A stretch of DNA of 64,000 nucleotides from Acidimicrobiaceae bacterium. GTDB lineage: Bacteria > Actinomycetota > Acidimicrobiia > Acidimicrobiales > RAAP-2. The stretch is taken from contig CANGPS010000007.1 of the NCBI GenBank assembly GCA_947456245.1, positions 12,462 through 76,461 on the forward strand, written 5' to 3'. The notes below the pieces were generated by a model that saw nothing but the letters and a program-made list of their open reading frames with translations, was not told where the DNA came from and did not search any database. Each line of letters opens with the position of its first letter. The first letter of the stretch is position 1. Below, one piece after another: positions 9,019 through 31,995 of this stretch. A program made the translations under genes and the position numbers.

Positions 9019-9873
9019 TCAGCGCTCGGTGGACACCACGAGGCGCAGCGAGCCGTCGTACTCCGCCGCGGTGCGGAGGTGCCCGTGGCGCTCGTCCCAG
9101 GAGCCATCGTCGAGCGCAGATCGGAGGCGCTCGACCGCATCCGCCTGGGCCTGCTCCTCGACGAAGCCCCATGAGCTCTGGGCCCTGCGGACCCGCTCGT
9201 CGAGGAAGGCCTCGGGGCGACCGAAGTAGGCCTCCACGATGCCGTCCGTGCACCGGGCGGGGATCGCCAGGGCCTCGATGGTCGTGGATGGACCGAGCCC
9301 CTCGACCAGGGTCGACATCGCCGGCATCCTCCTGCTCTCCGCAGCCGTGACCTCGGGCGCGTAATCGGTGAGCCAGAAGCGCTGGAGCTCGTCGGGGTCG
9401 AAGGTCAGGACCACGATCGGACCGCGCGCGACCCTCCGGAGCTCGGCCAGGCCACGGTCGAGATCCCGCCATTGGTGGACGGTGAACGATGCCAAGGCCG
9501 CGTCGAAGGACTGGTCCGGGAAGGGCAGGTCCTCGGCGGCCGCATCGATGGCGAGCGCACGATCGACCGGACGCTGGGCCCGCATCGACGCCGAGGGCTC
9601 GACGGGGGCGACCACGAGGCGATCCGGCTCATAGGACCCTGCACCCGCTCCGACGTTGATCAGGGTCCGAGCATCACCGAGGGCTGCCTCGATCGCGGCG
9701 AGGAACCTCGGTTCGGGGCGGCGGATGCTGGCGTAGTCGATGGCGAATGCGTCGTAGTCGAAGTCTCCCGCTGGCTCAGCGCGCACCACGACCCCCCCCA
9801 CTCGAGGATCGTCCTGGCTGGACGCCGGCTGATCCACCTGCGGCGATGGTACGACATCGCATCCGGTGCGCAC
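9019..9873 (-). CDS. class I SAM-dependent methyltransferase
   Basis: 284 aa. SAM motif I LINVGAGAGSY and the FD..LASFTVHQW post-motif region. The start could be further downstream. Confidence 0.75.
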   Translation of the reverse strand: MRTGCDVVPSPQVDQPASSQDDPRVGGVVVRAEPAGDFDYDAFAIDYASIRRPEPRFLAAIEAALGDARTLINVGAGAGSYEPDRLVVAPVEPSASMRAQRPVDRALAIDAAAEDLPFPDQSFDAALASFTVHQWRDLDRGLAELRRVARGPIVVLTFDPDELQRFWLTDYAPEVTAAESRRMPAMSTLVEGLGPSTTIEALAIPARCTDGIVEAYFGRPEAFLDERVRRAQSSWGFVEEQAQADAVERLRSALDDGSWDERHGHLRTAAEYDGSLRLVVSTER

Positions 9874-9911
9874 TGATTGCTCCGCTGCCGCGCCACTGCG
9901 AGACTCAGCCC

Positions 9912-10433
9912 GTGCCGCGCATCTCCGTCTTCATCGCCTCGTCGATCGACAACTACATCGCCACCGACGACGACCGGCTCGACTGGCTCGACGCCGCCTC
10001 CTCGCCCACCGAGGACTACGGCTACGACGCCTTCATCTCCACCATCGACACCATGGCCTTCGGCCGCGGGACCTGGGAGTTCATCGAGTCCGTGGACCCC
10101 CTTCCGTTCGGCGATCGCCCGATCTTCGTCTTCACGCGTCGACCGCCCACCACCGAGCGCGAGGGCGTCAGCTTCTGGGACCTGAGCCCGCACGAGGCGG
10201 TGGCCGAATGGGAGCGACGGGGCCTCGAGCACGTCTACCTCGACGGCGGACAGCTGATCTCGAGCTTCCTCGCCGAGGGGCTGGTCGACGACCTGCTGCT
10301 GACCAAGATCCCCATCCTCCTCGGGAGCGGGCGACCGCTCTTCACGCGCATCGCGAGGAGCACCGCGCTGACCCTCGATGGCGTCGAGACCTTCCCCAGC
10401 GGGATCGTCAACCTGCGCTACTCGCGAGCCTGA
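9912..10433 (+). CDS. dihydrofolate reductase family protein (RibD_C type), paralog A
   Basis: GTG at 9912, in frame with track ORF 9747..10433. VPRISVFIASSIDNYIATDDDRLDWLD...YLDGGQLISSFL...NLRYSRA. 173 aa. Gap-free paralog of 31474..31995. Confidence 0.75.
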   Translation: MPRISVFIASSIDNYIATDDDRLDWLDAASSPTEDYGYDAFISTIDTMAFGRGTWEFIESVDPLPFGDRPIFVFTRRPPTTEREGVSFWDLSPHEAVAEWERRGLEHVYLDGGQLISSFLAEGLVDDLLLTKIPILLGSGRPLFTRIARSTALTLDGVETFPSGIVNLRYSRA

Positions 10434-10529
10434 CCACGGCCGCCGTCTCGGCACGGCCCCGCAGGCCGGCCTGCGATGCTGGGACCCGTCGAGTGACGAG
10501 CAGAGCGAGGGATGGGGCGGACATGACTG

Positions 10530-11450
10530 GTGCATGGAGAGGCGCACCGCATGGGAGCTGAACGACCCGGCGTCCCCCCGTGGTCCCTGGCGATCGCCGC
10601 CATGTTCTCGGTCCAGCTCGGATCGGCACTCTCGACCCACCTCATCGACACCGTGGGCCCTGCCGGCACGGCATGGTTGCGCCTGACCGCCGGCGGCATC
10701 ATCTTCCTCGCCATCGCCCGTCCTCCGCTTCGATCGCTCTCCCGGCGCGACCTCCCGGTGCTGGTGGGACTCGGGATCACCACCGGGCTCCAGACCATGG
10801 CCTTCCTCGCCGCCATCGAGCGCATCCCGCTGGGGACCTCCGTCGCGATCGAGTTCCTCGGGCCGATGGTGGTCGCCGCGGTGCACAGTCACCGTCGTCG
10901 ATCGCTGGTCTGGGTCGGGCTCGCCGGCATCGGCGTGGTGCTCGTCACCCAGCCATGGGATGGCACTGCCAACCTCGCAGGAGTCTGGTTCGCCGCGCTG
11001 GCTGCCGTGGGATGGGCGGCATACATCCTGCTCACGAAGAAGGTCGGAGAGCGATTCTCGGGCGTGAGTGGCCTGGCGATCACCATCCCCATCGCCGCCA
11101 TCGTGGCTGCATGCGTCGGCGTCCCTCGGGCGGCAGGCCACCTGACCATGGGGATCGGCGCCGCCGCAATCGGCCTGGCGATCCTGCTGCCGGTGATCCC
11201 CTATGCGTTCGAGCTCTTGGCCCTTCGCCGCATGCCGCCCACCGCCTTCGGGACGCTCATGGCGCTGGAGCCGGCCTTCGGCGTGGTCCTGGGACTCGTC
11301 ATCCTCCACCAGCGACCCTCGTTCAGCCAGCTGGTCGGGATGCTCCTGGTCGTCGCCGCCGGTGTGGCGGCACAGCGGGCCGAACGTCGCCCGGGTGATC
11401 CGGGCGACCTTGAGCGCGACGAGCCGAGCACCGGGCCGTCACCCTTCTGA
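10530..11450 (+). CDS. EamA/DMT-family transporter (RhtA-like)
   Basis: 306 aa with about 10 hydrophobic segments and two EamA-like halves. The true start may be the ATG at 10551. Confidence 0.75.
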   Translation: MHGEAHRMGAERPGVPPWSLAIAAMFSVQLGSALSTHLIDTVGPAGTAWLRLTAGGIIFLAIARPPLRSLSRRDLPVLVGLGITTGLQTMAFLAAIERIPLGTSVAIEFLGPMVVAAVHSHRRRSLVWVGLAGIGVVLVTQPWDGTANLAGVWFAALAAVGWAAYILLTKKVGERFSGVSGLAITIPIAAIVAACVGVPRAAGHLTMGIGAAAIGLAILLPVIPYAFELLALRRMPPTAFGTLMALEPAFGVVLGLVILHQRPSFSQLVGMLLVVAAGVAAQRAERRPGDPGDLERDEPSTGPSPF

Positions 11451-11567
11451 TCCGCTGGCGCGCACCATCTCCCGCACGGGCCGCGGCCGACCTCGCCGAG
11501 TCGCGGCGAGCCGTGAGCGACCGTGGGCGTGCCAGCTCGCGATCTGGCGGTGCGCGAGGCTCTCTCC

Positions 11568-13055
11568 ATGCAGCGCACGGTGATCAGAGTCCATCCAGGC
11601 ATGACCATCGGTCCCGTCGATCCGAGGATCTTCGGAGGGTTCCTCGAGCACATGGGGAGAGCGGTCTACGGAGGGATCTTCGAGCCGGACAGCCCCCTCG
11701 CCGACGCCTTCGGCTGCAGGACCGACGTGCTCTCACACCTTGAGCAGCTCGACATGAGCGTCATGCGCTACCCCGGAGGGAACTTCGTCTCTGGGTACCA
11801 CTGGCGCGACGGTGTCGGACCCGTCGAGCAGCGGCCGACGGTCCGGGAGCTGGCGTGGAACAGCCTGGAGCCCAACACCTTTGGGACCGACGAGTTCCTC
11901 AGCCTCTGCGAGCGGATGGCCTGGACGCCGATGATGGCCGTCAACCTCGGCACCGGGACTCCCGAGGAGGCTCGCGAGTGGGTCGAGTACTGCAACGCCC
12001 CCATCGGCACCACCTCGTCAGACCTTCGGGCGTCCCATGGGCGCACGGATCCTTACCGCGTCGGGCTGTGGTGCCTCGGCAACGAGATGGACGGACCCTG
12101 GCAGCTTGGCCACGTCCCCGCCGAGGAGTACGCCGCACGCGCCAAGGCGGCAGCGCAGCTGATGCGAGAGGTCGATCCCGCGATCTCGACCGTGGTCTGT
12201 GGCTCGTCGACGCCGGACCTTGCCTCGTACCTCGAGTGGGACCGCGTCGTGCTCGAGCAGCTCGGCGAGGATGCGGACTTTCTCAGCGTCCATCGCTATG
12301 TGAACAACCTCGGCGGCGACACGCCGGAGTTCCTCGCCTCGGGTCGACAGATCGATCGGCAGATCGAGGAGGCTGATGCCGTCTGTCGCTTCGTCCAGGG
12401 TCGGACCAGAAGCCGGAAGCGGCCCTACCTCTGCTTCGACGAATGGAACGTCTGGTATAAGGACTTCGAGATGGACGGTCATGGCGCTGTCGCCCCCCAC
12501 CTCATCGAGGAGGTCTACAACCTCGAGGACGCACTCGTGGTCGCCGGCTTCCTCAACAGCTTCATCCGTCGTGCCGACGTCGTGAGGATCGCCAACCTGG
12601 CTCAGATCGTCAACGTCATCGCCCCCCTCCTGACCCGAGGTGACGACCTGCTGGTCCAGTCGATCTTCCACCCGTTCCAGATGATGTCGGCACGCCGGCG
12701 AGGGTCCTCCCTTCGGGTCGTCGTCGACGGGCCCACCTACTCGACCCGCGAGTCAGGGGAGGTTCCGTTCCTCGACGTCAGCGCGATCGTCGACGATGGC
12801 CTGCTGCACCTGTTCATCGTGAATCGATCGACCGATCATCCGGCACCCTTGGAGATCGACGTGGCTGCCATCTCCGCGCTCACCTTCGTTGACGCCGAGC
12901 TCCTGACCGGACCAGGGGCGAAGGCTGTCAACGACTTCGGCGCCCCACCGGTGGTCTCCCCTCATGCCTTCGATGACGTCACCTCATCGGGCGCGATCGC
13001 CCGCACCGAACTCCCCCCGTTGTCCTTCCTCGCGGCGTCGTTCACGATGGCCTGA
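11568..13055 (+). CDS. abfA: alpha-N-arabinofuranosidase, GH51
   Basis: Trimmed to MQRTVIRVHPGMTIGPVDPRIFGGFLEHMGRAVYGGI... RYPGGNFVSGYHW and the catalytic-region motif WCLGNEMDGPWQ are GH51 hallmarks. Confidence 0.85.
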   Translation: MQRTVIRVHPGMTIGPVDPRIFGGFLEHMGRAVYGGIFEPDSPLADAFGCRTDVLSHLEQLDMSVMRYPGGNFVSGYHWRDGVGPVEQRPTVRELAWNSLEPNTFGTDEFLSLCERMAWTPMMAVNLGTGTPEEAREWVEYCNAPIGTTSSDLRASHGRTDPYRVGLWCLGNEMDGPWQLGHVPAEEYAARAKAAAQLMREVDPAISTVVCGSSTPDLASYLEWDRVVLEQLGEDADFLSVHRYVNNLGGDTPEFLASGRQIDRQIEEADAVCRFVQGRTRSRKRPYLCFDEWNVWYKDFEMDGHGAVAPHLIEEVYNLEDALVVAGFLNSFIRRADVVRIANLAQIVNVIAPLLTRGDDLLVQSIFHPFQMMSARRRGSSLRVVVDGPTYSTRESGEVPFLDVSAIVDDGLLHLFIVNRSTDHPAPLEIDVAAISALTFVDAELLTGPGAKAVNDFGAPPVVSPHAFDDVTSSGAIARTELPPLSFLAASFTMA

Positions 13056-13494: not shown

Positions 13495-14457
13495 CTACCA
13501 GATGTGGAACCCGTCATCGGGGTCGTCAGGTGCGACCACGCCGAAGCGGCGACGCACCTCGTCGAGCGGCAGGGGGGCGAGCGCGAGGTGGTCGACGAGC
13601 GAGAAGTCGGCGGTGCACTTCGCGCCCCTCGCCATCTCCTGGCCAAGGAGCTCCGGGGCTCCATCGAGGGAGAGCGTCTCGGTCTCCGCGTTCGGGATCG
13701 AGGTCGGACGTCCGAACCCGGCCTCATGGATGACCAGAGAGGCCAGCAAGGCGGAGAAGTTCACGTCGTTGTCGTCCATCGCCACCATGAACCCGCTGAG
13801 CGCGATCTCGCCCGGCGACGTGGTCCCGATCCCAGCGATCACGTGGGTCATGTCGTGGGCGACGTAGAAGTGGTTCATGATCGCAGGGTCCAGGCCGGGA
13901 AGGTTCAGGCCAGTCCGCTCGTAGAAGCGGAGGAATGCTCGACCGAGGGAATCCTCGTCGAGGTCGGCGAAGGCCTCGAGCCTCGTCACCAGCTCGGGCT
14001 CGGGTGACGAGGGATCGAACGCTTCGCTCGCCAGCGTCGGCTCCGCCCGAAGTGGGGCCATCTTCTCGATGTACCGCCGGTAGTCCGCCGCCGCCGCCTC
14101 GATGCCCCCGTCCATGAGCGAGCGGAACATCACGAGGTCCGGCCCGTCGACACCCAGTGCCGAGGCGTAGCGCTCGACGGCTTCGACCTGGGCGGCTGCC
14201 TGCGGATGACGTGCGGCCTCTAGGGCGACGAGCAGATGGTGGAACCGACGCCGGTCCATGGGGTCGGTCAGCACGACGGCCAGTTCAGCCGGACCGATGG
14301 GGTCCAAGCTGTGGACATCGACGTCGATGCACCCGAGGTAGTGGGCGCCGATGGACGAAAGGACGGCCAACTGCTCTGGCGTGGGTCCGTCGTCGATCGA
14401 TATGGCCCCCAGGAGGCCGGCGACCACCGCTCGTCCATCGCTGCCAAACGCTGCCAA
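13495..14457 (-). CDS. hypothetical protein with a Coq4-like HDxxH-(x11)-E metal motif
   Basis: 320 aa, coding-like composition. YVAHDMTHVIAGIGTTSPGEIAL fits the HDxxH-x11-E zinc motif of the Coq4 family. The family assignment is by motif only. Confidence 0.5.
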   Translation of the reverse strand: MAAFGSDGRAVVAGLLGAISIDDGPTPEQLAVLSSIGAHYLGCIDVDVHSLDPIGPAELAVVLTDPMDRRRFHHLLVALEAARHPQAAAQVEAVERYASALGVDGPDLVMFRSLMDGGIEAAAADYRRYIEKMAPLRAEPTLASEAFDPSSPEPELVTRLEAFADLDEDSLGRAFLRFYERTGLNLPGLDPAIMNHFYVAHDMTHVIAGIGTTSPGEIALSGFMVAMDDNDVNFSALLASLVIHEAGFGRPTSIPNAETETLSLDGAPELLGQEMARGAKCTADFSLVDHLALAPLPLDEVRRRFGVVAPDDPDDGFHIW

Positions 14458-14625
14458 ACGCTGATGTCATCTGATCCCCCCTCACGTCATCACCATCCAA
14501 GACCCTGGGGCCCTCTTGCGATGCATCGGGTCAATCATTGCCGCTTGGCACCGGTCAGACCGCGTTGCGTGAAGGAAGAGCTGGTGCACCTTCAGCGGCC
14601 ACCAGCGAGGAGGGTTCGCCAACGA

Positions 14626-14679
14626 TCGGCCGTCGAGCATGCACCGGTAGACATTGGTATCCCGAATCAAAGCAGAAAC
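14626..14679 (-). repeat. cassette-boundary repeat copy 1 (distal, most decayed)
   Basis: tcggccgtcgagcatgcaccggtagacattggtatcccgaatcaaagcagaaac. Shares GGTAGACATTGGT and ...AGAAAC with the other copies. The position of the stop codon reads CGA instead of TGA on the minus strand. Confidence 0.55.
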
Positions 14680-14697
14680 GCCCTGGAGTTCGAGGGC

Positions 14698-14916
14698 CTA
14701 GAGGAGGTCCAGGAAGTCATCCACCGACAGACCTGCTTGGCGGATGATTGAGCGGAGGGTTCCTGAAGCCAGTTCCTTGTGCATCGGCACGATGACCGTC
14801 GATTCGGCTCGCCGCAGCTTCACGTGGCTTCCGCGCTGGCTGATCTCGGCAAAGCCAAGGCTCGCGAGTGCCTTGATGACGCGAGCGCCGCTAACGACCG
14901 GAAGCGGTGGACTCAC
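14698..14916 (-). CDS. hicA: HicA-family mRNA interferase toxin
   Basis: 72 aa. ...VIKALASLGFAEISQRGSHVKLRR...VPMHKELASGTLRSIIRQAGL, the HicA/YcfA signature. Overlaps the upstream antitoxin gene by 4 nt. Confidence 0.8.
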   Translation of the reverse strand: MSPPLPVVSGARVIKALASLGFAEISQRGSHVKLRRAESTVIVPMHKELASGTLRSIIRQAGLSVDDFLDLL

Positions 14917-15113
14917 GCAGAGAGCTGGAAGGTGGTGACGGTGGGATGGGCCAACTCGATCGGCGCTCCTTCGTCCTCGAAATAGAGACCAAGTGCCTCC
15001 TTGAGATTCTCAAGAGAATCCTCCGCTGAGAGACCCTGACTGGTCACCTCAACTTCGAGGCAACGCGCGACGAACAGGTCGCCCTCTTGCGTGATTGCTG
15101 CCGTGAACTCCAT
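14913..15113 (-). CDS. hicB: HicB-like antitoxin (UPF0150 fold)
   Basis: 66 aa. MEFTAAITQEGDLFVARCLEVEVTSQGLSAEDSLENLKEALGLYFED, the typical HicB N-terminal domain pattern. Here the antitoxin precedes the toxin. Confidence 0.7.
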   Translation of the reverse strand: MEFTAAITQEGDLFVARCLEVEVTSQGLSAEDSLENLKEALGLYFEDEGAPIELAHPTVTTFQLSA

Positions 15114-15184
15114 GGCTCAAGCATACGAGCATGGTGCGACAGGTCGCTGCGGGCCCGCGCGTGCATCAGCCCTGCGGACACGCT

Positions 15185-15240
15185 GGCTCGGCGTGGTCTC
15201 AACTCTCCACAGCGACTTGATCAATTTCGCTGGTTCGGCT
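15185..15240 (-). repeat. possible degenerate extra copy of the cassette-boundary repeat
   Basis: tcaactctcca at 15199-15209 is identical to the same part of copy 3 (16162-16172). The following cagcga...tcaatttcgctgg is only loosely similar to the repeat body. The GTAGACATTGG core is missing. Confidence 0.25.
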
Positions 15241-15311
15241 TACAGCAGAAGTGCATGCCGGCCCACAGTCCCCAAAGGCAGACGGAGGCTTGAAGGACCC
15301 AGCCCTACGAC

Positions 15312-15443
15312 ATGAGCAAGCCGGAGGCCGAAATTCAGACTCCTCGCTTCATTTCATGGCTGGTAGCCGAGACCTTCCGATGGGTCCTCTCCGGAGCGCT
15401 CATCGCGATCGTGGTCCTGCTGCTGAGTGATGCTGCCCTGTGA
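15312..15443 (+). CDS. small hydrophobic protein (43 aa), hypothetical
   Basis: Hand translation: MSKPEAEIQTPRFISWLVAETFRWVLSGALIAIVVLLLSDAAL-stop. One clear TM helix, no convincing RBS. Below the track's size cut-off. Confidence 0.25.
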   Translation: MSKPEAEIQTPRFISWLVAETFRWVLSGALIAIVVLLLSDAAL

Positions 15444-15615
15444 TTCACGCTGACGATCCCAGTCGCGGCACTGCTCTTCGTGGCCATCTGGGTGTCGGCC
15501 TTGACGGGCATCTTGCGAGCTCGAACGGCGTTTGGCCCTCCTCGAAGGCGCAAGTAGGCAGCATCTTCCACGGCTCGGTTGAATCCGGACAGCGGCGCCC
15601 GAGTGTGGGCGGCAG

Positions 15616-15683
15616 CTCAGATTCGCAGGTCATCCCTCCAACGAAATCCTGTACACATTGATATCTCGACTCAAAGTAGAAAC
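15616..15683 (-). repeat. cassette-boundary repeat copy 2
   Basis: ctcagattcgcaggTCAtccctccaacgaaatcctgtacacattgatatctcgactcaaagtagaaac. The minus strand reads VSTLSRDINVYRISLEG-stop. Confidence 0.8.
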
Positions 15684-15714
15684 GGACTCGGTCCGTTCTG
15701 GCTACTTCGGGGCG

Positions 15715-15933
15715 TCAGGAGGCCACCTTGACAGTCGTCACGATCGAGGATGAAGGCAGGGGCACGACCTCGCCATTGAGGAGCATCCCTTCGATGTGGA
15801 ACTCGATCGCATCGCGTATGTTTGCTGTCACCTCTTCAAGGGAGACGCCGGTGGCGACACATCCGTCGAGGTCTGGCACCCAAGCGCCGAAGTTGTGATC
15901 CGATCTCTCGATGACCACCGTGTACTCGCTCAT
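15715..15933 (-). CDS. hicB: HicB-family antitoxin
   Basis: 72 aa. MSEYTVVIERSDHNFGAWVPDLDGCVATGVSLEEVTANIRDAIEFHIEGM, the canonical HicB N-domain. 4-nt overlap with hicA upstream. Confidence 0.85.
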   Translation of the reverse strand: MSEYTVVIERSDHNFGAWVPDLDGCVATGVSLEEVTANIRDAIEFHIEGMLLNGEVVPLPSSSIVTTVKVAS

Positions 15934-16127
15934 CGTGGCCTCCTCTCGAGTCCCGCCTGCTTTACGATGCTAGCGACGAGTGGACGCTGGAGGTCGTCGG
16001 ACAACTTTCCGGGGACGGTCACTGTCCCGCCCTTAGTCCGATGCCTGAACTGACGATGGCTTCCTCGCTGTCGGTCGAGGTACCAACCATCTGCCTCGAT
16101 CTCCTTGATCATCGTCCTGACCTTCAC
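15930..16127 (-). CDS. hicA: HicA-family toxin
   Basis: 65 aa. ...IKEIEADGWYLDRQRGSHRQFRH..KGGTVTVPGK...L..IVKQAGL, the HicA signature. Confidence 0.85.
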   Translation of the reverse strand: MKVRTMIKEIEADGWYLDRQRGSHRQFRHRTKGGTVTVPGKLSDDLQRPLVASIVKQAGLERRPR

Positions 16128-16147
16128 CGACCCACAACGGTCGGGGG

Positions 16148-16215
16148 CTCAGGTCAGCTGGTCAACTCTCCAACGAGAATCTGTAGACATTGGTCTCTCG
16201 CATGAAAATAGAAAC
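16148..16215 (-). repeat. cassette-boundary repeat copy 3
   Basis: ctcaggtcagctggTCAactctccaacgagaatctgtagacattggtctctcgcatgaaaatagaaac. The minus strand reads VSIFMRETNVYRFSLES-stop. Confidence 0.85.
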
Positions 16216-16272
16216 GGGAACACGAGTCTGATCACTCAAGCTCGTCGGGCAAAGCCGTCTGGGTCACGATGA

Positions 16273-16319
16273 ATCACAAGTTAGCTTGCTGCCGTCACAG
16301 TGACAAAATAACTTGTGAT
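16273..16319. promoter_or_regulatory. nested palindromes (probable operator) overlapping the start of the 16315 TA-like operon
   Basis: Perfect 11-bp inverted repeat ATCACAAGTTA (16273-16283) / TAACTTGTGAT (16309-16319). It encloses an inner palindrome GTCAC-A-GTGAC (16294-16304). The right arm covers the GTG start at 16315. Confidence 0.5.
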
Positions 16320-16551
16320 CGTGGATGATTCCCCACAGATCATCGAAAGCGCCCGGAGGTACGGAATTGTGGATACCGACATCATCCACTGCTTCGACAA
16401 CCCCATCCTCGTCGAGGACCTCGATGACGATCTCGTCATGCTGGTGGGGCCAGACCGAACTGGCCGCCTCTTGGAGGTCGGTGTCGTTGTCGGCAACGAC
16501 GGACCCGTCATCGTCCACGCCATGGAAGCTAGAACCAAGTACCTGAGGTGA
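16315..16551 (+). CDS. small toxin-like protein of a two-gene TA-like module (family not recognised with confidence)
   Basis: 78 aa, GTG start. ...ARRYGIVDTDIIHCFDNPILVED...GPDRTGRLLEVGVVVGNDGPVIVHAMEARTKYL resembles small actinobacterial toxin-like proteins. GTGA overlap with the next gene. Confidence 0.5.
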   Translation: MIVDDSPQIIESARRYGIVDTDIIHCFDNPILVEDLDDDLVMLVGPDRTGRLLEVGVVVGNDGPVIVHAMEARTKYLR

Positions 16552-16832
16552 ACACCATGCCAAGAAGCACGAAGCACATCATCGAGCAGGCCGACGAGTT
16601 GGCGAGGCGGTTCCAGGACCATGCTCCGGGCTCAAGCAACGTGAAGACTGCGGATTCGCTCCGTGAGGTGCGGCTTGCCTTTCTTCGTCGAGCAGAGGCG
16701 GAACAAGAACTTTTCGCCGCCGTCGATGGTGCCCGAGCTGACGGTCAGAGTTGGGCCGCTGTCGGGGCGATGCTCGGCACTTCTGGAGAGGCAGCTCGCC
16801 AGCGCTATGGCGCGCCCGCCGTCAAGAACTGA
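16548..16832 (+). CDS. antitoxin-like protein with C-terminal HTH
   Basis: 94 aa. The C-terminal QSWAAVGAMLGTSGEAARQRYG looks like a short HTH. Translationally coupled to 16315..16551. Its stop codon lies inside repeat copy 4. Confidence 0.5.
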   Translation: MNTMPRSTKHIIEQADELARRFQDHAPGSSNVKTADSLREVRLAFLRRAEAEQELFAAVDGARADGQSWAAVGAMLGTSGEAARQRYGAPAVKN

Positions 16833-16888
16833 GTTCAGCCTTCCAAAGAAAACCTATAGACATTGGTCTCTCGACTTGCGGTAGAAAC
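16821..16888 (-). repeat. cassette-boundary repeat copy 4
   Basis: gtcaagaactgagtTCAgccttccaaagaaaacctatagacattggtctctcgacttgcggtagaaac. The minus strand reads VSTASRETNVYRFSLEG-stop. Confidence 0.85.
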
Positions 16889-16910
16889 CGCCTTCTGCTG
16901 GATCGATGCC

Positions 16911-17207
16911 CTACGCGACAGCCAGCGGCGTGATGGCATCGAGCACGGGGCCGAGCTGATCCTTCTCGTTCTCAAGGTCATAGCGGGACTGCAGATTGAT
17001 CCAGAATCGCTCGCTCGTGCCGAAGTACTTGGCAAGTCGCAATGCGGTGTCCGCGGAGATCCCTCGCTTGCCATGGACGATCTCATTGATCCGGCGAGGC
17101 GGCACGGCGATCTCCACCGCCAGGCGGTGCTGTGTCACCCCGAGGGGCATGAGAAAGTCCTCCATAAGAACTTCGCCCGGATGGATGGGCGTCATCGTGG
17201 TCGTCAT
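16911..17207 (-). CDS. higA: HigA-family antitoxin (XRE HTH)
   Basis: 98 aa. IHPGEVLMEDFLMPLGVTQHRLAVEIAVPPRRINEIVHGKRGISADTALRLAKYFGTSERFWINLQ, a textbook HigA/VapI sequence. Confidence 0.85.
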   Translation of the reverse strand: MTTTMTPIHPGEVLMEDFLMPLGVTQHRLAVEIAVPPRRINEIVHGKRGISADTALRLAKYFGTSERFWINLQSRYDLENEKDQLGPVLDAITPLAVA

Positions 17208-17218
17208 CGAATGTCCTC

Positions 17219-17500
17219 TCAGTGGTAGTCAGTGATCTCGATCTCTTCGGGCCCAACCTTCGTCCAGCGAAAGCAGATCCTCCACTGGTCGTTGATTCTG
17301 ATGCTGTGCTGTCCCGCCCTGCCGCCGCTGAGCTTCTCCAACCGGTTCCCCGGCGGGACACGAAGGTCAGCCAGGCTCTCTGCCGCATCGAGGATCACGA
17401 GTTTGCGAAGTGCCACTCGTTGGAGGTCTCCATGGAGCTTCCGAACTCGCTCTCTGCGCCAGACCCGCTCAGTGTCCCGGTCCTTGAAGGTCTGCAGCAC
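17219..17500 (-). CDS. higB: HigB-type (RelE superfamily) plasmid-maintenance killer toxin
   Basis: 93 aa. ...LDAAESLADLRVPPGNRLEKLSGGRAGQHSIRINDQWRICFRW...EIEITDYH, the HigB signature. Lies upstream of higA, as expected for higBA. Confidence 0.85.
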   Translation of the reverse strand: MLQTFKDRDTERVWRRERVRKLHGDLQRVALRKLVILDAAESLADLRVPPGNRLEKLSGGRAGQHSIRINDQWRICFRWTKVGPEEIEITDYH

Positions 17501-17585
17501 TCACCAAACATAACGCCTCTCGTTATGAACGTCAAGCGTTATGTCGTTGTCACCAGAGGCGCCGGCGCTCGACCTCCACACCCTC

Positions 17586-17897
17586 TCACCCGAGGAGGTC
17601 ACGGACGTCCACGATCGAAGTGATGACCTCTCCGCGCCAGCCGACCTCTTCGTCGGGCCGCTCATGGTCCCGTTCCCAAGGATCCCTGAGAAGGATTGGA
17701 CGCATGCCGAGCGCGCGAGCGCCGCTCCACTCCTGGCTGCCTCGATCACCCACATAGACGCACGAGCTGGCATCGACCCCCAGCTCCTCCGTGACCGAGA
17801 GGTAGTTGCGCTCATGTGGCTTCCTCGTCCTGAGTACGCACGAGAACTGAATCGCACTGGGCAGGTCAGAGTCTCCATCAGACCCAGTGCGATTCAC
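17586..17897 (-). pseudogene. C-terminal fragment of a HAD-IA-type hydrolase
   Basis: ...FSCVLRTRKPHERNYLSVTEELGVDASSCVYVGDRGSQEWSGARALGMRPILL matches HAD motifs III-IV (K ... GD). The N-terminal DxD/T motifs are missing and an upstream stop bounds the frame. Confidence 0.5.
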
Positions 17898-17944
17898 GCA
17901 AATCGGTCCTGCAACGTGCAGTCGGACTAGTTCTCCAAGGAATC

Positions 17945-18088
17945 ATGTGGCTAGTGGTGGCGATCGCCCTCACTCTTCATGGTTCAACAGGTATGACTTG
18001 GACACTTGTCCCCGCTGCCGTGGCAGGGGTAGCGGGAGTCACGTTCCTCATTCGGTACTGGCAACTCAGACCGAAGAATCAATCCTGA
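17945..18088 (+). CDS. small membrane protein (47 aa), hypothetical
   Basis: Hand translation: MWLVVAIALTLHGSTGMTWTLVPAAVAGVAGVTFLIRYWQLRPKNQS-stop. Two hydrophobic stretches. AAGGA lies 5 nt upstream of the ATG. Below the track's size cut-off. Confidence 0.3.
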   Translation: MWLVVAIALTLHGSTGMTWTLVPAAVAGVAGVTFLIRYWQLRPKNQS

Positions 18089-18142
18089 GGGCATTCTGCA
18101 TCCAACCTGTCCCAGTCTGAAGCGATCTGCAGCGGCGAGGAA

Positions 18143-18210
18143 CTTAGGTCAGTTGATCAACCTTCCAGCGAAATTCGGTAGACATTGGTCTCTCGCATCA
18201 AGGTAGAAAC
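18143..18210 (-). repeat. cassette-boundary repeat copy 5
   Basis: cttaggtcagttgaTCAaccttccagcgaaattcggtagacattggtctctcgcatcaaggtagaaac. The minus strand reads VSTLMRETNVYRISLEG-stop. Confidence 0.85.
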
Positions 18211-18276
18211 GAGGGAGGCACCGCAGCAGGGTCCAGCCCAGGAAGGGGGACTACCGATCAGAGCCCACGAGGCCGC

Positions 18277-18822
18277 TCAGGAGAGGTGGTCTTCGCAGAG
18301 ATCCATCAGTGCCATCAGCGCCCCTTGCTCCCCATGGGACCATGCGTCGTAGGAAATCGAGAAGACCAACGCCGCCCTGCCGACGGCGACTCGTGCCTCG
18401 AGCGGATCAGCTCCATGTTCCTCAAGAACGTCCACCAGCGAAGCGCACCACCGCTCTTGCTTCACGAGTTGCCGCCCTCGAAGCCGTGCGTTCTGCTCCA
18501 GGACTTCGACTCGGAGCTGGTGCTCGCTGCGATCGGCCTCGAACCCTGCCGCGAGCGCCCGAACTCCAGCAATCACTGCAGCCCGAGGTTGCATGCGATC
18601 GAGCGCATCAGTGACGGCGTCTACGAGGAACTCCTCCATCGCTGCATCGCCGGAGAACAGCACTTCCTCCTTGTCGGTGAAGTGCCGAAAGAACGTTCGT
18701 GCCGTCACACCCGCCTTCGCCGCGATCTGCTCCACAGTCGTCGCATCGAATCCCTGGGATGCGAAGAGCTCAAGGGCAGCTTCACTCAACCGAGCGCTCG
18801 TGCCTTCTGCCCATCTCGACAT
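18277..18822 (-). CDS. TetR/AcrR family transcriptional regulator
   Basis: 181 aa. The N-terminal HTH LSEAALELFASQGFDATTVEQIAAKAGVTARTFFRHF is typical TetR. Confidence 0.85.
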   Translation of the reverse strand: MSRWAEGTSARLSEAALELFASQGFDATTVEQIAAKAGVTARTFFRHFTDKEEVLFSGDAAMEEFLVDAVTDALDRMQPRAAVIAGVRALAAGFEADRSEHQLRVEVLEQNARLRGRQLVKQERWCASLVDVLEEHGADPLEARVAVGRAALVFSISYDAWSHGEQGALMALMDLCEDHLS

Positions 18823-18842
18823 CGCCTCATCGTATGACTTGC

Positions 18843-18855
18843 GTCACGAAGTGAC
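18843..18855. promoter_or_regulatory. palindrome GTCAC-GAA-GTGAC in the tetR/SDR divergent intergenic region (candidate operator)
   Basis: Perfect 5-3-5 dyad between tetR (start 18822, minus) and the SDR gene (start 18874, plus). Confidence 0.4.
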
Positions 18856-18873
18856 ATCACGCATGATTGATTG

Positions 18874-19812
18874 ATGACAGATCGTGACATCACTGAAGCT
18901 TCCACCGTCGTCGTGACGGGACCGACCCGAGGACTCGGTCTCGAGACCACTCGAGCGCTCGTCCAGCTCGCCACCGGATTGGACGTCCTCCTGGTAGGCC
19001 GACTCTCGCAGGCCATGGAGCAGATCAGCTCTGAGATAGCGATCGCTCAGTCAAGACCGCACATCATCGCCTGCGACTTTGCTGATCTGGATTCGGTCAG
19101 ATCTGCCTCGACTGAGATCGCCGGCCTCATCGACTCAGGGGCCGTCGCGCCGATCTCGTCGATTGTAGCGAACGCCGGGCTTCAGACGATCGATCGGAAT
19201 CACGTGACAAAACAGGGTTACGAACTGACCTTCGGGGTCAATGTGCTCGCCCAGCAGGTGTTGATCAATGAGCTGCTCGACCACTTCGAGCTCGACGCAC
19301 GAATCATCCTCGTGGGGAGCGGCACTCACCGCGACGATCGCAAGAAGGGTGCAGTGGCGTTGCCTCGTTGGGAAGGACCGGCATCACTGTGTCAGCCCGG
19401 AGTCGGAGATGACGCTGGCGAGTCGGCCGCAGGCCAGCGCGCCTACGCAACCTCGAAGCTTTGCGTGAACTACCTCGTTCACGAACTCGACCGCCGCCAT
19501 GGCGACAAGGTCGTTGCGTTGGTTCATGACCCAGGGATGATGCCGGGAACCGGCCTTGCCCGTGACATGTCTGCCGCCAAGCGCCTTGCCTGGGAGAAGG
19601 TGATGCCTCGGCTCAATATGCCGGGGTCAAGCACGCCACAGCGTTCCGGTCGAGTCCTGGCAGAGATGGCACTCGGGCTGAAGTTCGCCGACGCACGGGG
19701 CGGCTACGTCAATATCGACGTACTCGGCGATCCGTCCCCCCAGTCGTTCAATCCCGAGCGAGAGGCGCAGCTCTGGGAAGCCTGTAGCGAGATGGCTCGG
19801 TCGGCTTCCTGA
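18874..19812 (+). CDS. SDR family oxidoreductase
   Basis: ATG at 18874 (the track starts at TTG 18871). VVVTGPTRGLGLET glycine motif; YATSK catalytic Y-x3-K; about 312 aa. Confidence 0.8.
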   Translation: MTDRDITEASTVVVTGPTRGLGLETTRALVQLATGLDVLLVGRLSQAMEQISSEIAIAQSRPHIIACDFADLDSVRSASTEIAGLIDSGAVAPISSIVANAGLQTIDRNHVTKQGYELTFGVNVLAQQVLINELLDHFELDARIILVGSGTHRDDRKKGAVALPRWEGPASLCQPGVGDDAGESAAGQRAYATSKLCVNYLVHELDRRHGDKVVALVHDPGMMPGTGLARDMSAAKRLAWEKVMPRLNMPGSSTPQRSGRVLAEMALGLKFADARGGYVNIDVLGDPSPQSFNPEREAQLWEACSEMARSAS

Positions 19813-19895
19813 CACACGAGCCGAAGGCGGCTACGGCGAAGCGATCAATCGTTGCAGCCCAAGGCGAATCTCACGTCGTGGAGCTCGCACCTCCG

Positions 19896-19963
19896 TGAAC
19901 GCGCGAGGCTCAACCCTCCAAAGAAGACCTATCAACATTGGGTTCTCTTCTTGCGGGAGAAAC
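19896..19963 (-). repeat. cassette-boundary repeat copy 6 (diverged)
   Basis: tgaacgcgcgaggcTCAaccctccaaagaagacctatcaacattgggttctcttcttgcgggagaaac. Same length and register as the others. The minus strand reads VSPARREPNVDRSSLEG-stop. Confidence 0.7.
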
Positions 19964-20014
19964 GACTTCGTCTCAGATTGAAGATCTAGCTCTTCAGGCG
20001 CCGACGAGCGATAG

Positions 20015-20470
20015 CGTCCTCGCAAGGAAATCCGTCAGTTCGTCATCGGTGATTCTGCCGCCGCTGTCGAGCTCTGGAGTTCCACAGGCCTTCTCTGGCC
20101 CAGCAATGACCCCGTTCGCGACATCGAACGAAAGCTCGAAGACTCACCGTGGGGCTTCCTCGTCATGGTCGAGGACGACGACATCATCGGTTCGATCATG
20201 GTCGGCTACGACGGCCATCGGGGGTGGGTGAACTACCTCGCCTGCCACACGCTCCACCGTCGAAGGGGCGTCGCCACGTCACTCATGACAGAGGCAAGCA
20301 AGATCCTCGCGGCTCGCGGCTGCCCGAAGATCAACCTTCAGGTTCGCGCTGGCAACGACGCTGCCGTGAAGTTCTACGAGAGCATCGGCTACGTGGCGGA
20401 AGAAGTCAGCTCGTTGGGCCTTCGACTCGTGGACGACCAGTTCGGGCAGCAAGAGGTCACGAGTCCGTGA
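20015..20470 (+). pseudogene. YpeA-like GNAT acetyltransferase lacking a canonical start codon
   Basis: The frame is open from 20015, directly after TAG at 20012-20014. It reads RPRKEIRQFVIGDSAAAVELWSSTGLLWPSNDPVRDIERKLEDSPWGFLVMVEDDDIIGSIMVGYDGHRGWVNYLA...ARGCPKINLQV...FYESIGY and is collinear with E. coli YpeA from its Met1. The position aligned to Met1 is AAG (20024). There is no ATG, GTG, TTG or CTG in frame before 20165, which is the track's start. Confidence 0.5.
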
Positions 20471-20530
20471 ACGCCTACCTCGAGCCCCATAACAGGTGCA
20501 GGGGTCTTCCGTGCGGAGCAATCACCAGCC

Positions 20531-20746
20531 TCACGACGCCACCTGGATCGTCTTCACGATGGGCATCGGCTCTGGAAGCTGATCCCCGTGAAGTCGCATT
20601 CCCTCAAGGTGGAACGGGATCGCCTCACGCATGTTCTCGATCACCTCGTCGACCGTCTTGCCGGTCGTGATGACCCCATCGAGCCCGATCACGTAGGCGG
20701 CGAAGGTCGTCCCCGCATCTTCGATCACGATCGTGTACTCGGTCAC
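20531..20746 (-). CDS. hicB: HicB-family antitoxin
   Basis: 71 aa. MTEYTIVIEDAGTTFAAYVIGLDGVITTGKTVDEVIENMREAIPFHLEGM. Clear paralog of 15715..15933. Confidence 0.85.
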   Translation of the reverse strand: MTEYTIVIEDAGTTFAAYVIGLDGVITTGKTVDEVIENMREAIPFHLEGMRLHGDQLPEPMPIVKTIQVAS

Positions 20747-20949
20747 TGGCCTCTCCTCGTCAAGCCGGCCTGCCTCATGATGCTAGCGAGGGTTCCCTTC
20801 GGCACCTCGTCGGAAAGGTGGCCGGGCACGGTGACGCAGCCTGGCTTCGCCGGATGGTGGAACTGCCGATGGCTCCCCCGTTGTCGTGACAGGTACCATC
20901 CATCGCCTTCGATGACCTTGATCAGCTCACGAACCCTCACCGACCACAA
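20743..20949 (-). CDS. hicA: HicA-family toxin
   Basis: 68 aa. ...LIKVIEGDGWYLSRQRGSHRQFHHPAKPGCVTVPGHLSDEVPKGTLASIMRQAGL. Paralog of 15930..16127, and the similarity continues into the 5' flank. Confidence 0.85.
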   Translation of the reverse strand: MWSVRVRELIKVIEGDGWYLSRQRGSHRQFHHPAKPGCVTVPGHLSDEVPKGTLASIMRQAGLTRRGQ

Positions 20950-20959
20950 CGGTCGAGCG

Positions 20960-21012
20960 TTCAGGACAGTTGGTCAGCCTTCCAATGAAAATCTGTAGAC
21001 ATTGGTCTCTCG
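20960..21012 (-). repeat. cassette-boundary repeat copy 7 (proximal; forms the last 12 codons + stop of the GNAT gene)
   Basis: ttcaggacagttggTCAgccttccaatgaaaatctgtagacattggtctctcg is the rc of ...CGA GAG ACC AAT GTC TAC AGA TTT TCA TTG GAA GGC TGA. The AGAAAC-side arm of the other copies is replaced by GNAT coding sequence (..RCGFEQ). Confidence 0.8.
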
Positions 21013-21414
21013 CTGCTCAAACCCACAGCGGACATAGAGCCGGTTGGCCCCCTCTCGCTTCGGGTTCGACGTGAGATCAACGGTCCGCGAGTTCGCCTTT
21101 CGAGCGAGGGCGATCGCCGCCTCGACGAGCGCTTCGCCTACGCCCTGACCACGGGCCTCGACGTCCACGACCACATCCTCGATCCACCCCCGGGCCCCCG
21201 AGGGTGATCGGAACAGCACGAGCGTGAGCGTTCCCACGATCCCCGCACCCGTGCGTGCGACGAAGAGCGTCGTATCCGGAGCGGCGACGATCGACTCGAG
21301 GTCATAGGCCTCCACGGGCGGAGCACTCTGCGAGAGCTGCGGGATGAGCCTGCGGAGCGCCTCGGTCACCTCGGGACCCACGACGGTCACCTCTTCGATC
21401 CAGACCTCGCTCAT
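20974..21414 (-). CDS. GNAT family N-acetyltransferase
   Basis: Start taken at ATG 21414 (MSEVWIEEV...), which forms an ATGA overlap with the NUDIX stop. GNAT motif A region IEDVVVDVEARGQGVGEALV; C-terminus ...NRLYVRCGFEQRETNVYRFSLEG. Confidence 0.85.
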   Translation of the reverse strand: MSEVWIEEVTVVGPEVTEALRRLIPQLSQSAPPVEAYDLESIVAAPDTTLFVARTGAGIVGTLTLVLFRSPSGARGWIEDVVVDVEARGQGVGEALVEAAIALARKANSRTVDLTSNPKREGANRLYVRCGFEQRETNVYRFSLEG

Positions 21415-22100
21415 GCACCCGCCTCCTCGCCGCGCCACACCGGGGCTCGGACCTGGTCGTAGTGCACGTCGTTGATCTCGCCTCGAAGCGCTGCGAAGAC
21501 GGGGTCTCCCCAGCGCTCCAGTCCGACGAGCGGCGAGGGCAGGTTGTCTCGGGTGAACCAGCCAAGGTCCGACACCTCGAGGGGGTGCGGGTTCAGCTCG
21601 CCCCCCACCGCTCGGCAGTGGAAGAGCAGGGAGTAGATCGGGATGCGCGACATGCCGAGGCGCAGTCCGTCGAGGACGGCGATCAGACGGACGGTCTCGA
21701 CCTCGATCCCGGTCTCCTCCTCCACCTCCTTCTCGACCACCTCCGAGGCTGAGTAGCCCACGTCACACCAACCGGTCGGGTAGAGCCACACCCCGGAATC
21801 GGCGCGCTGGATCAGGAGGAGCTCGCCCTTGTCGTTCTCGACTGCGGCGCCGACCGCCACCTTCGGCGTCTGGTAGCCGGGCACGCCCTTGCCCACCTGG
21901 GACATCCACTCGACCACGTGGCCCTCGGCATCGTCGAGCTGCTCGGGATCCTGCTCGGTGGCGACCTTGATGTCGGCGGCGATCTTCAGGATCTCCTCGA
22001 AGCGCTCCTTCTCGTACAGGCTCTCGGTGAACCCGAGGCCGGTCTTGGCGACGGCCGCGAGGGTCTCAGACCACCGCCGGAGGACTCTCTCAGGGATCAT
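21411..22100 (-). CDS. NUDIX hydrolase with N-terminal Nudix_N-type helical domain
   Basis: Trimmed to MIPERVLRRWSETLAAVAKTGLGFTESLYEKERFEEILKIA... Nudix box GWCDVGYSASEVVEKEVEEETGIEV. An alternative start at 22160 would leave only 9 bp to the divergent gene. Confidence 0.75.
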   Translation of the reverse strand: MIPERVLRRWSETLAAVAKTGLGFTESLYEKERFEEILKIAADIKVATEQDPEQLDDAEGHVVEWMSQVGKGVPGYQTPKVAVGAAVENDKGELLLIQRADSGVWLYPTGWCDVGYSASEVVEKEVEEETGIEVETVRLIAVLDGLRLGMSRIPIYSLLFHCRAVGGELNPHPLEVSDLGWFTRDNLPSPLVGLERWGDPVFAALRGEINDVHYDQVRAPVWRGEEAGA

Positions 22101-22169
22101 GCGCTCCACGTCCCGCACGCTACCAACCTCCAGCGTCCTCGGCGCCCCGCTGCGCGGCATGATGGTGGC

Positions 22170-31391: not shown

Positions 31392-31473
31392 CCGCGCGAC
31401 CCACGGGCCGCTCGCTTCGCCCCAGGGGATGCTCAGGCTTGCTGTGGGTCGCGCTGCAGGCGATCATCGGTCG

Positions 31474-31995
31474 GTGCCACGCGTCTCGGTCTTCATCGCC
31501 TCGTCGATCGACAACTACATCGCCACCAGCGATGACGGCCTCGACTGGCTCGACGAGGCCGTGGGGCCCGGCGAGGACTACGGCTACGACGCCCTCATGT
31601 CCACCGTCGACGCCCTGGCGATGGGCAGGGGCACGTGGGACGTCATCGCCTCGATCGACCCCCTGCCCTTCGGCGAGCGTCGCCTGTTCGCCTTCTCCCA
31701 CCGCCAGCCGACCGAGGAGCGAGCAGGCGTGACGTTCTGGGAGCGGAGCCCCAGAGCGGCGATGGACGAGTGGGACCGGCTCGGCATCGACCACGTCTAC
31801 CTCGACGGCGGACAGCTCATCTCGAGCTTCCTGGCCGACGGGCTCGTCGACGACCTCGTGCTGACCAAGATCCCCGTCCTCCTCAGATCGGGCCGACCGC
31901 TGTTCACACCCATCGAGCGCTCGACCGCGCTCCGCCTCGACGGGGTCGAGACCTTCCCGAGCGGGATCGTCAACCTCCGCTACTCCCGGGCCTGA
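31474..31995 (+). CDS. dihydrofolate reductase family protein (RibD_C type), paralog B
   Basis: GTG at 31474, in frame with track ORF 31429..31995. VPRVSVFIASSIDNYIATSDDGLDWLD...NLRYSRA. 173 aa, collinear with 9912..10433. Confidence 0.75.
   Translation: MPRVSVFIASSIDNYIATSDDGLDWLDEAVGPGEDYGYDALMSTVDALAMGRGTWDVIASIDPLPFGERRLFAFSHRQPTEERAGVTFWERSPRAAMDEWDRLGIDHVYLDGGQLISSFLADGLVDDLVLTKIPVLLRSGRPLFTPIERSTALRLDGVETFPSGIVNLRYSRA

Follow-up and report, generated by a model that had tools for sequence, protein, structure and literature searches.

An integron-like cassette array at the 3' end of a GNAT acetyltransferase gene in freshwater Actinomycetes

How does a bacterium from a phylum in which integrons are essentially absent come to carry an ordered array of small gene cassettes, all bounded by the same short repeat? 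This question is raised by a stretch of 64,000 nucleotides from an Acidimicrobiaceae bacterium (GCA_947456245.1, contig CANGPS010000007.1, forward-strand positions 12,462 to 76,461; hereafter the window), in which an earlier note, made from the sequence alone, had recognised seven copies of a 68-bp element next to a GNAT acetyltransferase gene. The repeat turned out to duplicate the final codons of the GNAT gene itself and to be constrained as coding sequence, a point absent from the earlier note. The array is active or recently active and integron-like in function, and it is not an integron, since Pfam searches revealed no integrase near the locus. We assign a probability of about 0.7 to the reading that the array is built and reshuffled by recombination at a double-stranded site in the conserved 3' end of the GNAT gene, and that its units are mobile cassettes exchanged by site-specific recombination at the core of that site mapped below.

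Repeat copies, site anatomy and the anchor gene

A repeat search of the window recovered seven direct copies of a single family, all in one orientation and with start-to-start distances of 1004, 532, 673, 1322, 1753 and 1064 nt, exactly as described before. A profile made from the seven recovered its own copies at E = 5e-20 to 1.3e-14 (nhmmer), and the best other match in the 64 kb reached E = 0.95; there is thus no eighth copy, and the statement that the element occurs nowhere else in the window stands. The length of the element had to be revised: the conserved unit comprises 54 nt, to which about 14 nt travelling with the next cassette add up to 68 nt. Likewise, the TCA that had been used to define the register is present, but it is the complement of a TGA stop codon, and the informative strand is the minus rather than the plus strand. 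The low-GC segment of 6.4 kb consists of six cassettes delimited by the seven sites, and its AT-richness was confirmed (GC 0.58-0.61 over 15-21 kb compared to about 0.65-0.74 in the flanks).

Sites are numbered on the minus strand from the G of GTTTCT, at which the site has a sharp left boundary. Positions 1-15 form a cassette-specific arm, GTTTCTACYTTGAKK (GTTTCT and 9 nt). Positions 16-35 are a 20-bp dyad core, CGRGAKAC-CAAY-GTNTAYMG, arranged 8-4-8 around a centre between positions 25 and 26, with mutually inverted halves (CGRGAKAC versus the reverse complement CKRTANAC). The last 19 nt (positions 36-54) hold the codons R-F-S-L-E-G and TGA, and core and right arm together read as the terminal codons of the GNAT gene, R-E/D-T-N-V-Y-R-F-S-L-E-G-stop. 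In the anchor gene, the product of which begins MSEVWIEEV and ends RETNVYRFSLEG-stop (C-terminal stretch LYVRCGFEQRETNVYRFSLEG-stop), the attachment site corresponds to the last 13 codons of the open reading frame (ORF), codons 134-146. The C-terminus TNVYR[FIL]SLE[GSA] is present in most of the 120 closest GNAT homologues. The primary sequence of the sites is strongly conserved, and the repeats of 54-68 nt are often more than 85% identical among themselves.

The anchor genes and the sites are as follows, from the NUDIX gene outward; numbers with the prefix L denote related loci.

21411-22118, minus strand: NUDIX hydrolase gene (Pfam NUDIX 2.9e-15, Nudix_N; 235-aa call from the same strain's contig L025)
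20974-21414, minus strand: anchor GNAT acetyltransferase gene, 146 aa (Pfam Acetyltransf_1 5.3e-16)
20974-21012, minus strand: Site 0 (copy 7), anchor-type, attL-like, core and right arm inside the GNAT ORF
19910-19963, minus strand: Site 1, cassette-type, most divergent internal copy, REPNVDRSSLEG-stop (repeat and profile search)
18157-18210, minus strand: Site 2, cassette-type (profile E = 5e-20)
16835-16888, minus strand: Site 3, cassette-type (repeat and profile search)
16162-16215, minus strand: Site 4, cassette-type (repeat and profile search)
15630-15683, minus strand: Site 5, cassette-type, right half identical to that of the GNAT-linked site of L005
14626-14679, minus strand: Site 6 (copy 1), distal, attR-like, arm and left half-core with a decayed right half (YRCMLDGR)
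13495-14427, minus strand: Coq4-like gene (weak Pfam Coq4 match; 310-aa call in L025)

The anchoring in the 3' end of a GNAT gene proposed in the earlier note is real, and the copy that provides it is copy 7, the true 3' end of the gene. The 54-nt unit of this copy covers 20974-21027, of which only positions 16-54 are common to the other copies; the GTTTCT arm is missing, and GNAT coding sequence (TGTGGGTTTGAGCAG) stands upstream of position 16. Copies 2-6 are complete cassette-type sites. Copy 1 does share the arm and the left half-core with the other copies, but degenerates in its distal half, where TGA is replaced by CGA. Internal sites of L005 and L010 match its left part at 92.6% identity, while its right part is unique to the window strain. 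CGA replaces the stop codon in three separate sites (window 14626-14628, L001:5003 and L038:15386), and a site of this type in first position would extend the GNAT protein. The NUDIX gene lies upstream of the GNAT gene with an overlap of 4 nt, and the pair is kept in all related loci. The exact anchor GNAT protein was found on 6 metagenome contigs, and orthologous GNAT genes are attributed by NCBI to Actinomycetes metagenome-assembled genomes (MAGs), in line with the actinobacterial host suspected earlier.

Codon-level selection and the position of the crossover

We analysed the coding constraint in 40 distinct cassette-type sites. The variable columns (18, 21, 27, 30, 33, 36, 39, 42, 45, 48 and 51) are all third codon positions in the GNAT frame, and the mean entropy of the three codon positions is 0.49, 0.24 and 0.93 (permutation p = 3e-5). 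Relative to the consensus, 138 synonymous and 69 non-synonymous codon changes occur in this frame, compared to 27 and 173 in each other frame. Cassette-borne sites are under selection to encode R-E/D-T-N-V-Y-R-F-S-L-E-G-stop, as would be expected if any cassette can become the first and then must complete the GNAT gene. The same periodicity is seen in the left half-core (0.39 / 0.17 / 0.69), though this is never part of the GNAT ORF. Since reflection about 25|26 maps third onto third positions, a recombinase that reads both halves alike would tolerate the same columns, and this shared tolerance may account for the pattern.

The sites do not behave like attC sites, as had been stated before. 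When six sites were folded as single-stranded DNA, on either strand, z values ranged from +0.12 to -1.57, which is the level of shuffled sequences, and no common hairpin spans the site. The repeat has no Rfam family, only two sub-threshold chance matches being returned. An RNA or a tRNA target as the origin of the repeat was rejected because of the missing Rfam family and the distance of the tRNA genes, which occur in the window only at 31320 and 62704.

For crossover mapping, unique sites were grouped by a strictly identical left or right neighbour. Across about nine independent groups, whatever lies left of positions ~21-26 is linked with the left neighbour, and whatever follows from 27/28 onwards with the right one. 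The left cassette keeps the arm and the left half-core as far as …GAKACCAA, and the right cassette keeps YGTNTAYNG together with the R-F-S-L-E-G-stop codons and the next 14 nt. For instance, three right halves that differ from one another occur after the left half 'gatccagtgtgc GTTTCTACTTTGATT CGAGATACCAA', and three distinct left halves occur before the right half '[T/C]GTCTACAG ATTTTCATTGGAAGCCTGA CCGTCAG…'. The right half of window site 5 equals that of the GNAT-linked site of L005, in which a cassette of the N type is the first behind the GNAT gene. Exchange occurs within K-ACCAA-Y, a stretch of about 7 nt at the dyad centre. This narrow switch at the centre of an inverted repeat indicates site-specific and not homologous recombination. 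The crossover would suit a tyrosine recombinase with a 6-7-bp overlap, the edge markers then being heteroduplex, and it would also suit a serine recombinase cutting at A25-A26 of a ~50-bp site.

Variable arrays in related loci and the cassette cargo

A degenerate pattern of the core and right arm matched four stretches from two freshwater MAGs labelled 'uncultured actinobacterium' in a set of 185,579 species genomes. A looser pattern yielded 20 stretches from JGI metagenomes, and exact-protein look-ups (the window GNAT, five homologues and the cassette-A protein) yielded 29 further loci. All pattern matches in the genome and metagenome collections lie in GNAT-linked arrays; together with the profile search of the window, this shows that the repeat is not a dispersed repetitive extragenic palindrome (REP) or miniature inverted-repeat transposable element (MITE). 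By profile, 191 sites were located in 53 related loci from freshwater MAGs and metagenomes, in one orientation within each locus and with a spacing of 512-1991 nt (median 829 nt). Wherever a contig includes the proximal end, the array begins at the 3' end of the NUDIX-linked GNAT gene. The identical seven-site array of the window strain is present in three independent assemblies and hence is not an assembly artefact.

Cassettes were clustered at an identity of at least 85%, and comparison of their order gave the following arrays.

Window: I P Q A R N
L002 + L001 / L007: B A D H M E F G
L019: B A D I K L
L008: B O A
L023: S T U O
L016: A
L005: N C J V W
L028: L Y

According to these orders and the identity matrix, the cassettes are discrete units that occur in varying orders and arrays, as is the case for integron cassettes. 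Cassette A is 95-100% identical across nine loci, the anchors of which are only 72-83% identical. Over the 1.1 kb of GNAT and NUDIX, for example, the window shares 73% identity with L002 and 82.5% with L004, and L018 and L004 have a 100% identical cassette A next to anchors of 72.7% identity. Anchors that are 96-98% identical (L004, L008, L023), in turn, are followed by different arrays. The occurrence of a 95-100% identical unit in many contexts across genomes of 72-83% identity implies that the small units themselves must move. The identical 91-aa cassette-A protein is indexed in 249 blocks of public collections and has 8 neighbour sets among the 23 longest contigs.

The alignment against relatives that had been suggested in the earlier note revealed both an empty site and differently loaded arrays. 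In L013 and L021 (a distant relative, GC 0.57) the NUDIX-GNAT pair ends in …RDTNVYRFSLED-stop and is directly followed by an alpha/beta-hydrolase gene, with a single site. Neither do the relatives all carry the same array, as cassette presence and order vary among loci, nor did we find the same genes in the same order without the repeats. Other loci show decay: GCA_947479505.1 (GNAT 76% identical) has two cassettes, the sites of which show 1-nt indels and hence are decaying, and decayed sites are also seen in L028 and in copy 1 of the window.

Two further observations concern the ends of arrays. In L040/L041, a block of the arsenic type (ArsR, glyoxalase, MIP and low-molecular-weight (LMW) phosphatase; 10445-12805) stands directly after the GNAT site, and no distal site was detected in L040. 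After cassette J, L015 opens with the same right flank, CGTTCAACCCTCGA…, as L040/L041, and ArsR and LMW-phosphatase ORFs are present on the L015 contig. L038 (JGI Ga0486080_000002, 645,688 bp) ends within its array, with six sites before the end, and arrays thus appear to break metagenome assemblies.

The cargo consists mainly of toxin-antitoxin (TA) pairs, and cassette genes occur in both orientations. Pfam searches bore out the earlier count of one to three small genes per interval. The integron-type architecture recognised before, with small variable cargo enriched in TA and GNAT genes, is supported by the differing arrays and cargo of the relatives. The window cassettes and their genes are listed outward from the GNAT gene.

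19938-21001, minus strand: Cassette I, 1064 nt, HicA, HicB and reverse GNAT
20743-20949, minus strand: cassette I HicA (Pfam HicA 8.3e-24)
20531-20746, minus strand: cassette I HicB (Pfam HicB 1.5e-8)
20015-20470, plus strand: cassette I reverse GNAT, no start codon (Pfam Acetyltransf_1 1.3e-17)
18185-19937, minus strand: Cassette P, 1753 nt, short-chain dehydrogenase and TetR regulator
18871-19812, plus strand: cassette P short-chain dehydrogenase (Pfam adh_short 1.7e-16)
18277-18822, minus strand: cassette P TetR regulator (Pfam TetR_N 6.3e-17)
16863-18184, minus strand: Cassette Q, 1322 nt, two unknown ORFs, HigB and HigA
17887-18120, plus strand: cassette Q small ORF (no family given)
17501-17878, minus strand: cassette Q unknown ORF (no family given)
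17219-17500, minus strand: cassette Q HigB (Pfam HigB-like 9e-18)
16911-17207, minus strand: cassette Q HigA (Pfam HTH_3 3.1e-8)
16190-16862, minus strand: Cassette A, 673 nt, DUF4258-like gene and partner
16315-16551, plus strand: cassette A DUF4258-like gene (Pfam DUF4258 2.7e-4, below the curated cut-off)
16548-16832, plus strand: cassette A partner of 91-94 aa (ORF next to the DUF4258-like gene)
15658-16189, minus strand: Cassette R, 532 nt, HicA and HicB
15930-16127, minus strand: cassette R HicA (Pfam HicA 4e-19)
15715-15933, minus strand: cassette R HicB (Pfam HicB 2.2e-13)
14654-15657, minus strand: Cassette N, 1004 nt, unknown ORF, DUF7387/HicB-like gene and HicA
15335-15571, minus strand: cassette N unknown ORF (no family given)
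14913-15113, minus strand: cassette N DUF7387/HicB-like gene (Pfam DUF7387 5.7e-5)
14698-14916, minus strand: cassette N HicA (Pfam HicA 2.2e-18)

No possible start (ATG, GTG or TTG) occurs in the reverse GNAT gene of cassette I from the upstream stop (20012-20014) as far as 20165, so this gene either lacks a start or is in decay. The same cassette type is found in L019 and L024, and a cassette of similar gene content in L042-L045 has an intact reverse GNAT gene (148 aa in L042-L044, 111 aa in L045). The HicAB pair of cassette R is a 71-72% identical paralogue of that of cassette I. At the HicA start codon there is an overlapping, conserved GC hairpin, CCGACCGTTGTGGGTCGG (for instance at window 16128-16147 and 20940-20958), which goes with HicAB-type cassettes and lies outside the recombination site. 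The HigBA part of cassette Q is 96% identical to L001 6346-7087. Cassette E (L001, L007, L014; 1484 nt) is a fused form of cassettes resembling I and Q of the window, in which L001 7070-7087 joins window 20208 to 17569, implying a deletion that took out a site and its flanks. The methyltransferase of cassette C (L005, L010, L011, L015, L020) is 65% identical over 254 aa to a chromosomal S-adenosylmethionine (SAM)-dependent methyltransferase gene of the window (9019-9873, minus strand), which suggests that cargo can derive from genes native to the lineage. An rve fragment of the IS3 family lies inside two arrays (L004 5828-6298, and L008), and a complete ISL3 transposase gene is located just past the L007 array (9922-11160); both are probably secondary insertions.

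Beyond Site 6, a non-coding tail of 198 nt (14428-14625) precedes the Coq4-like gene, which is the first conserved chromosomal gene past the array. We considered this tail as a decayed HicA gene, which would fit the GNAT-HicAB-Coq4-like layout of L003, and rejected this at a Smith-Waterman z of 0. A 10-nt unit, GCTGCCAAAC, is tandemly doubled at 14440-14459, just upstream of the called start of the Coq4-like gene (14427). Two very similar RibD_C-domain paralogues (SVFIASSIDNYIAT…; 9747-10433 and 31429-31995, both plus strand) flank the array 21 kb apart. A promoter and terminator scan of the array gave counts at the level of shuffled sequence.

Proposed mechanism, rival explanations and known systems

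When free, a cassette would take the form of a circle that carries a single complete site. Such a circle could recombine with the GNAT-terminal site, or with any site of the array, and become inserted, and recombination between two direct sites would excise a cassette. The crossover lies in the T-N codons of the GNAT gene; every cassette thus brings a copy of the last ~9 codons and the stop, and the gene stays intact whichever cassette is first. Successive insertion of circles at the gene end would give the attL / attP-like / attR pattern that the seven sites show. We infer circular intermediates and a recombinase that acts in trans and is encoded elsewhere. For this enzyme, a tyrosine recombinase acting on a simple inverted-repeat core has roughly even odds, while a large serine recombinase is a possible but rather unlikely candidate. 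Further reaching and more tentative, at somewhat below even odds, is the proposal of an independent, integron-like gene-capture platform of actinobacteria, in which ~50-bp double-stranded sites mimic the last 13 GNAT codons, so that the gene outlives each insertion, and a dedicated recombinase encoded away from the array moves cassettes of 0.5-2 kb between species of freshwater Actinomycetes.

Several results weigh against recombination at the GNAT-terminal site by a dedicated enzyme. No recombinase or transposase was detected among ~60 ORFs of the window (Pfam; no Phage_integrase, Resolvase or Recombinase match; GroEL, ClpC and LysS were named by eye only), and the 53 related loci gave only two DDE transposase matches, ISL3 and the IS3 fragment. 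These loci also revealed no integrase or recombinase in their gene tables, in Pfam searches of ~30 representative ORFs or in the tables around six GNAT variants and the cassette-A protein. No circle or excision junction was seen, all contigs with the strain's exact GNAT protein showing the same array. The exact cleavage points are ambiguous: one junction (L011:1565) assigns position 27 to the left partner and several others assign it to the right, and at L023:4297 position 21 may belong to the right-hand side. Finally, L003 has the layout GNAT-HicAB-Coq4-like with no detectable distal site (L003 1900-2460), and it represents either a fixed cassette with its outer site erased or HicAB as the ancestral neighbour of GNAT.

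Other explanations have to be measured against the same data. The cassettes could be leftovers of tandem accretion, in which larger elements with an integrase (integrative and conjugative elements (ICEs), integrative and mobilizable elements (IMEs) or prophages of actinomycetes) inserted at the GNAT 3' end and left deletion remnants that resemble cis-mobilizable elements (CIMEs) and would move passively or not at all. Cassettes without integrase, the decayed sites and the deletion fusion in cassette E agree with this, as does the attL/internal/attR pattern with copies of the target-gene 3' end (PMC7771536). An autonomous relative that combines an integrase with the same att site was found neither in the 53 loci nor by pattern scans of viral contigs, which gave no match, nor by blastn of the array against plasmids and phages (PLSDB and INPHARED), which returned only HigBA homologues of ~63-71% identity. 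Additive islands share with our array that successive insertion at one att site pushes older units outward, that some units lack an integrase and that direct repeats copy the target 3' end with hybrid attL and attR; here, the anchor has no arm and the distal site no proper right half. However, about 25 cassette types from the 53 loci include no integrase remnant and no conjugation, replication or phage gene, the units are uniformly 0.5-2 kb long with complete sites on both sides, and an identical unit in many contexts across 72-83% identical genomes requires that small units move. Additive flexible genomic islands (PMC7771536) and tycheposons (bioRxiv 10.1101/2020.12.28.424599), moreover, occupy tRNA genes, include elements with tyrosine recombinases and often replication modules, and have units of kilobases to tens of kilobases, whereas the target here is protein-coding, none of the members seen bears an integrase and selection acts on the codons of the repeats. 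The repeats of the array copy GNAT coding sequence, and the only tRNA genes of the window are the two named above. We therefore regard accretion as improbable. The chances are poorer still that the repeats merely serve as portable homology and are swapped by homologous recombination after DNA uptake. The failure to find a recombinase, the length and identity of the repeats and a distal cassette with a weak TfoX_N match would suit this model; the switch of the informative junctions within ~7 nt at the dyad centre, the sharp GTTTCT boundary and the 8-4-8 core contradict it, and it does not account for how new cargo first gains a site.

A comparably small chance is given to cassettes that hijack the host XerC/XerD, as do integrative mobile elements exploiting Xer (IMEX) or the pdif modules of Acinetobacter. 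These are likewise small cargo modules, TA pairs included, with short sites and no recombinase of their own, and an inverted repeat about a short asymmetric spacer suits tyrosine recombinases. In contrast to pdif sites, which alternate, all 191 sites are direct within their loci, and they are chromosomal and gene-anchored. They also have no TTATG XerD-arm motif, and the best match within the site itself to the proposed actinobacterial dif of Frankia alni, CACGCCGATAATGCACATTATGTCAAGT (PMC3025954), reaches 14/28 against a shuffled mean of 13.2 and maximum of 16, although this dif is that of Frankia and the lineage's own may differ. A dispersed REP or MITE, a structured RNA or a terminator between genes is hardly conceivable: the repeat is short and intergenic and GC-rich hairpins follow some copies, but these belong to the HicAB-type cassettes, the repeat is confined to a single locus in the 64 kb and to GNAT-linked arrays in the genome scan, and it combines protein-coding periodicity with a lack of both Rfam match and fold signal.

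The comparison with integrons is the closest in terms of outcome. Sedentary chromosomal integrons share with the array a fixed chromosomal platform, tens of small cassettes (0.5-2 kb) with one site each in one orientation, shuffling and exchange of cassettes between species, and cargo rich in TA and acetyltransferase genes. The small cassettes rich in TA and GNAT genes would thus fit a classical integron or a cluster of attC sites lacking integron-integrases (CALIN), a possibility that we nevertheless consider very remote. Pfam detected neither an intI adjacent to the array nor any other tyrosine recombinase among the window ORFs. Instead of attC hairpins, the array has sequence-conserved ~50-bp sites of a double-strand type with a dyad core. 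The primary site lies within the GNAT ORF, the end of which is re-completed by each cassette, and not in an attI downstream of a Pc promoter; the cassettes often have two to three genes with their own orientation, pointing both ways. Furthermore, complete integrons are absent from Actinobacteria in RefSeq (bioRxiv 10.1101/2022.02.28.482270), which agrees with the earlier remark that integrons are essentially unreported in the phylum.

With regard to its anchor, the array resembles composite islands of the staphylococcal cassette chromosome (SCC). SCC elements of 3-60 kb accumulate at the 3' end of rlmH/orfX, are moved by the large serine recombinases CcrAB or CcrC and include psi-SCC elements without ccr. 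In these islands, too, the site consists of the last codons and the stop, the direct repeat of each unit restores the gene end and units without recombinase are moved in trans. Unlike the array, in which units of 0.5-2 kb have a ~50-bp site and no recombinase was found, SCC elements carry their recombinase and have repeats of ~15-18 bp. The locus differs from all systems compared here in its combination of tiny units without an integrase-bearing member, a ~50-bp codon-selected site, a protein-coding anchor and a phylum without complete RefSeq integrons. A full-text literature search of incomplete coverage returned no description of such arrays in Actinobacteria, which is absence of evidence only.

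The locus shows the same cassette outcome as in integrons attained with different parts, in a phylum where integrons are essentially absent. The arrays are compact and ordered, their cassettes can be exchanged between species, and TA cassettes may stabilise them. They account for a recurrent hypervariable spot, and for an assembly breakpoint, in abundant freshwater Actinomycetes, and integron finders that rely on attC and IntI can miss such cassette arrays. The defined site, the crossover within ~7 bp, dozens of cassette variants and a natural empty site put the hunt for the recombinase within direct experimental reach, and they could also yield a new site-specific recombination tool for short double-stranded sites in high-GC hosts. 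With a dedicated recombinase in hand, the array would count as a new kind of system.

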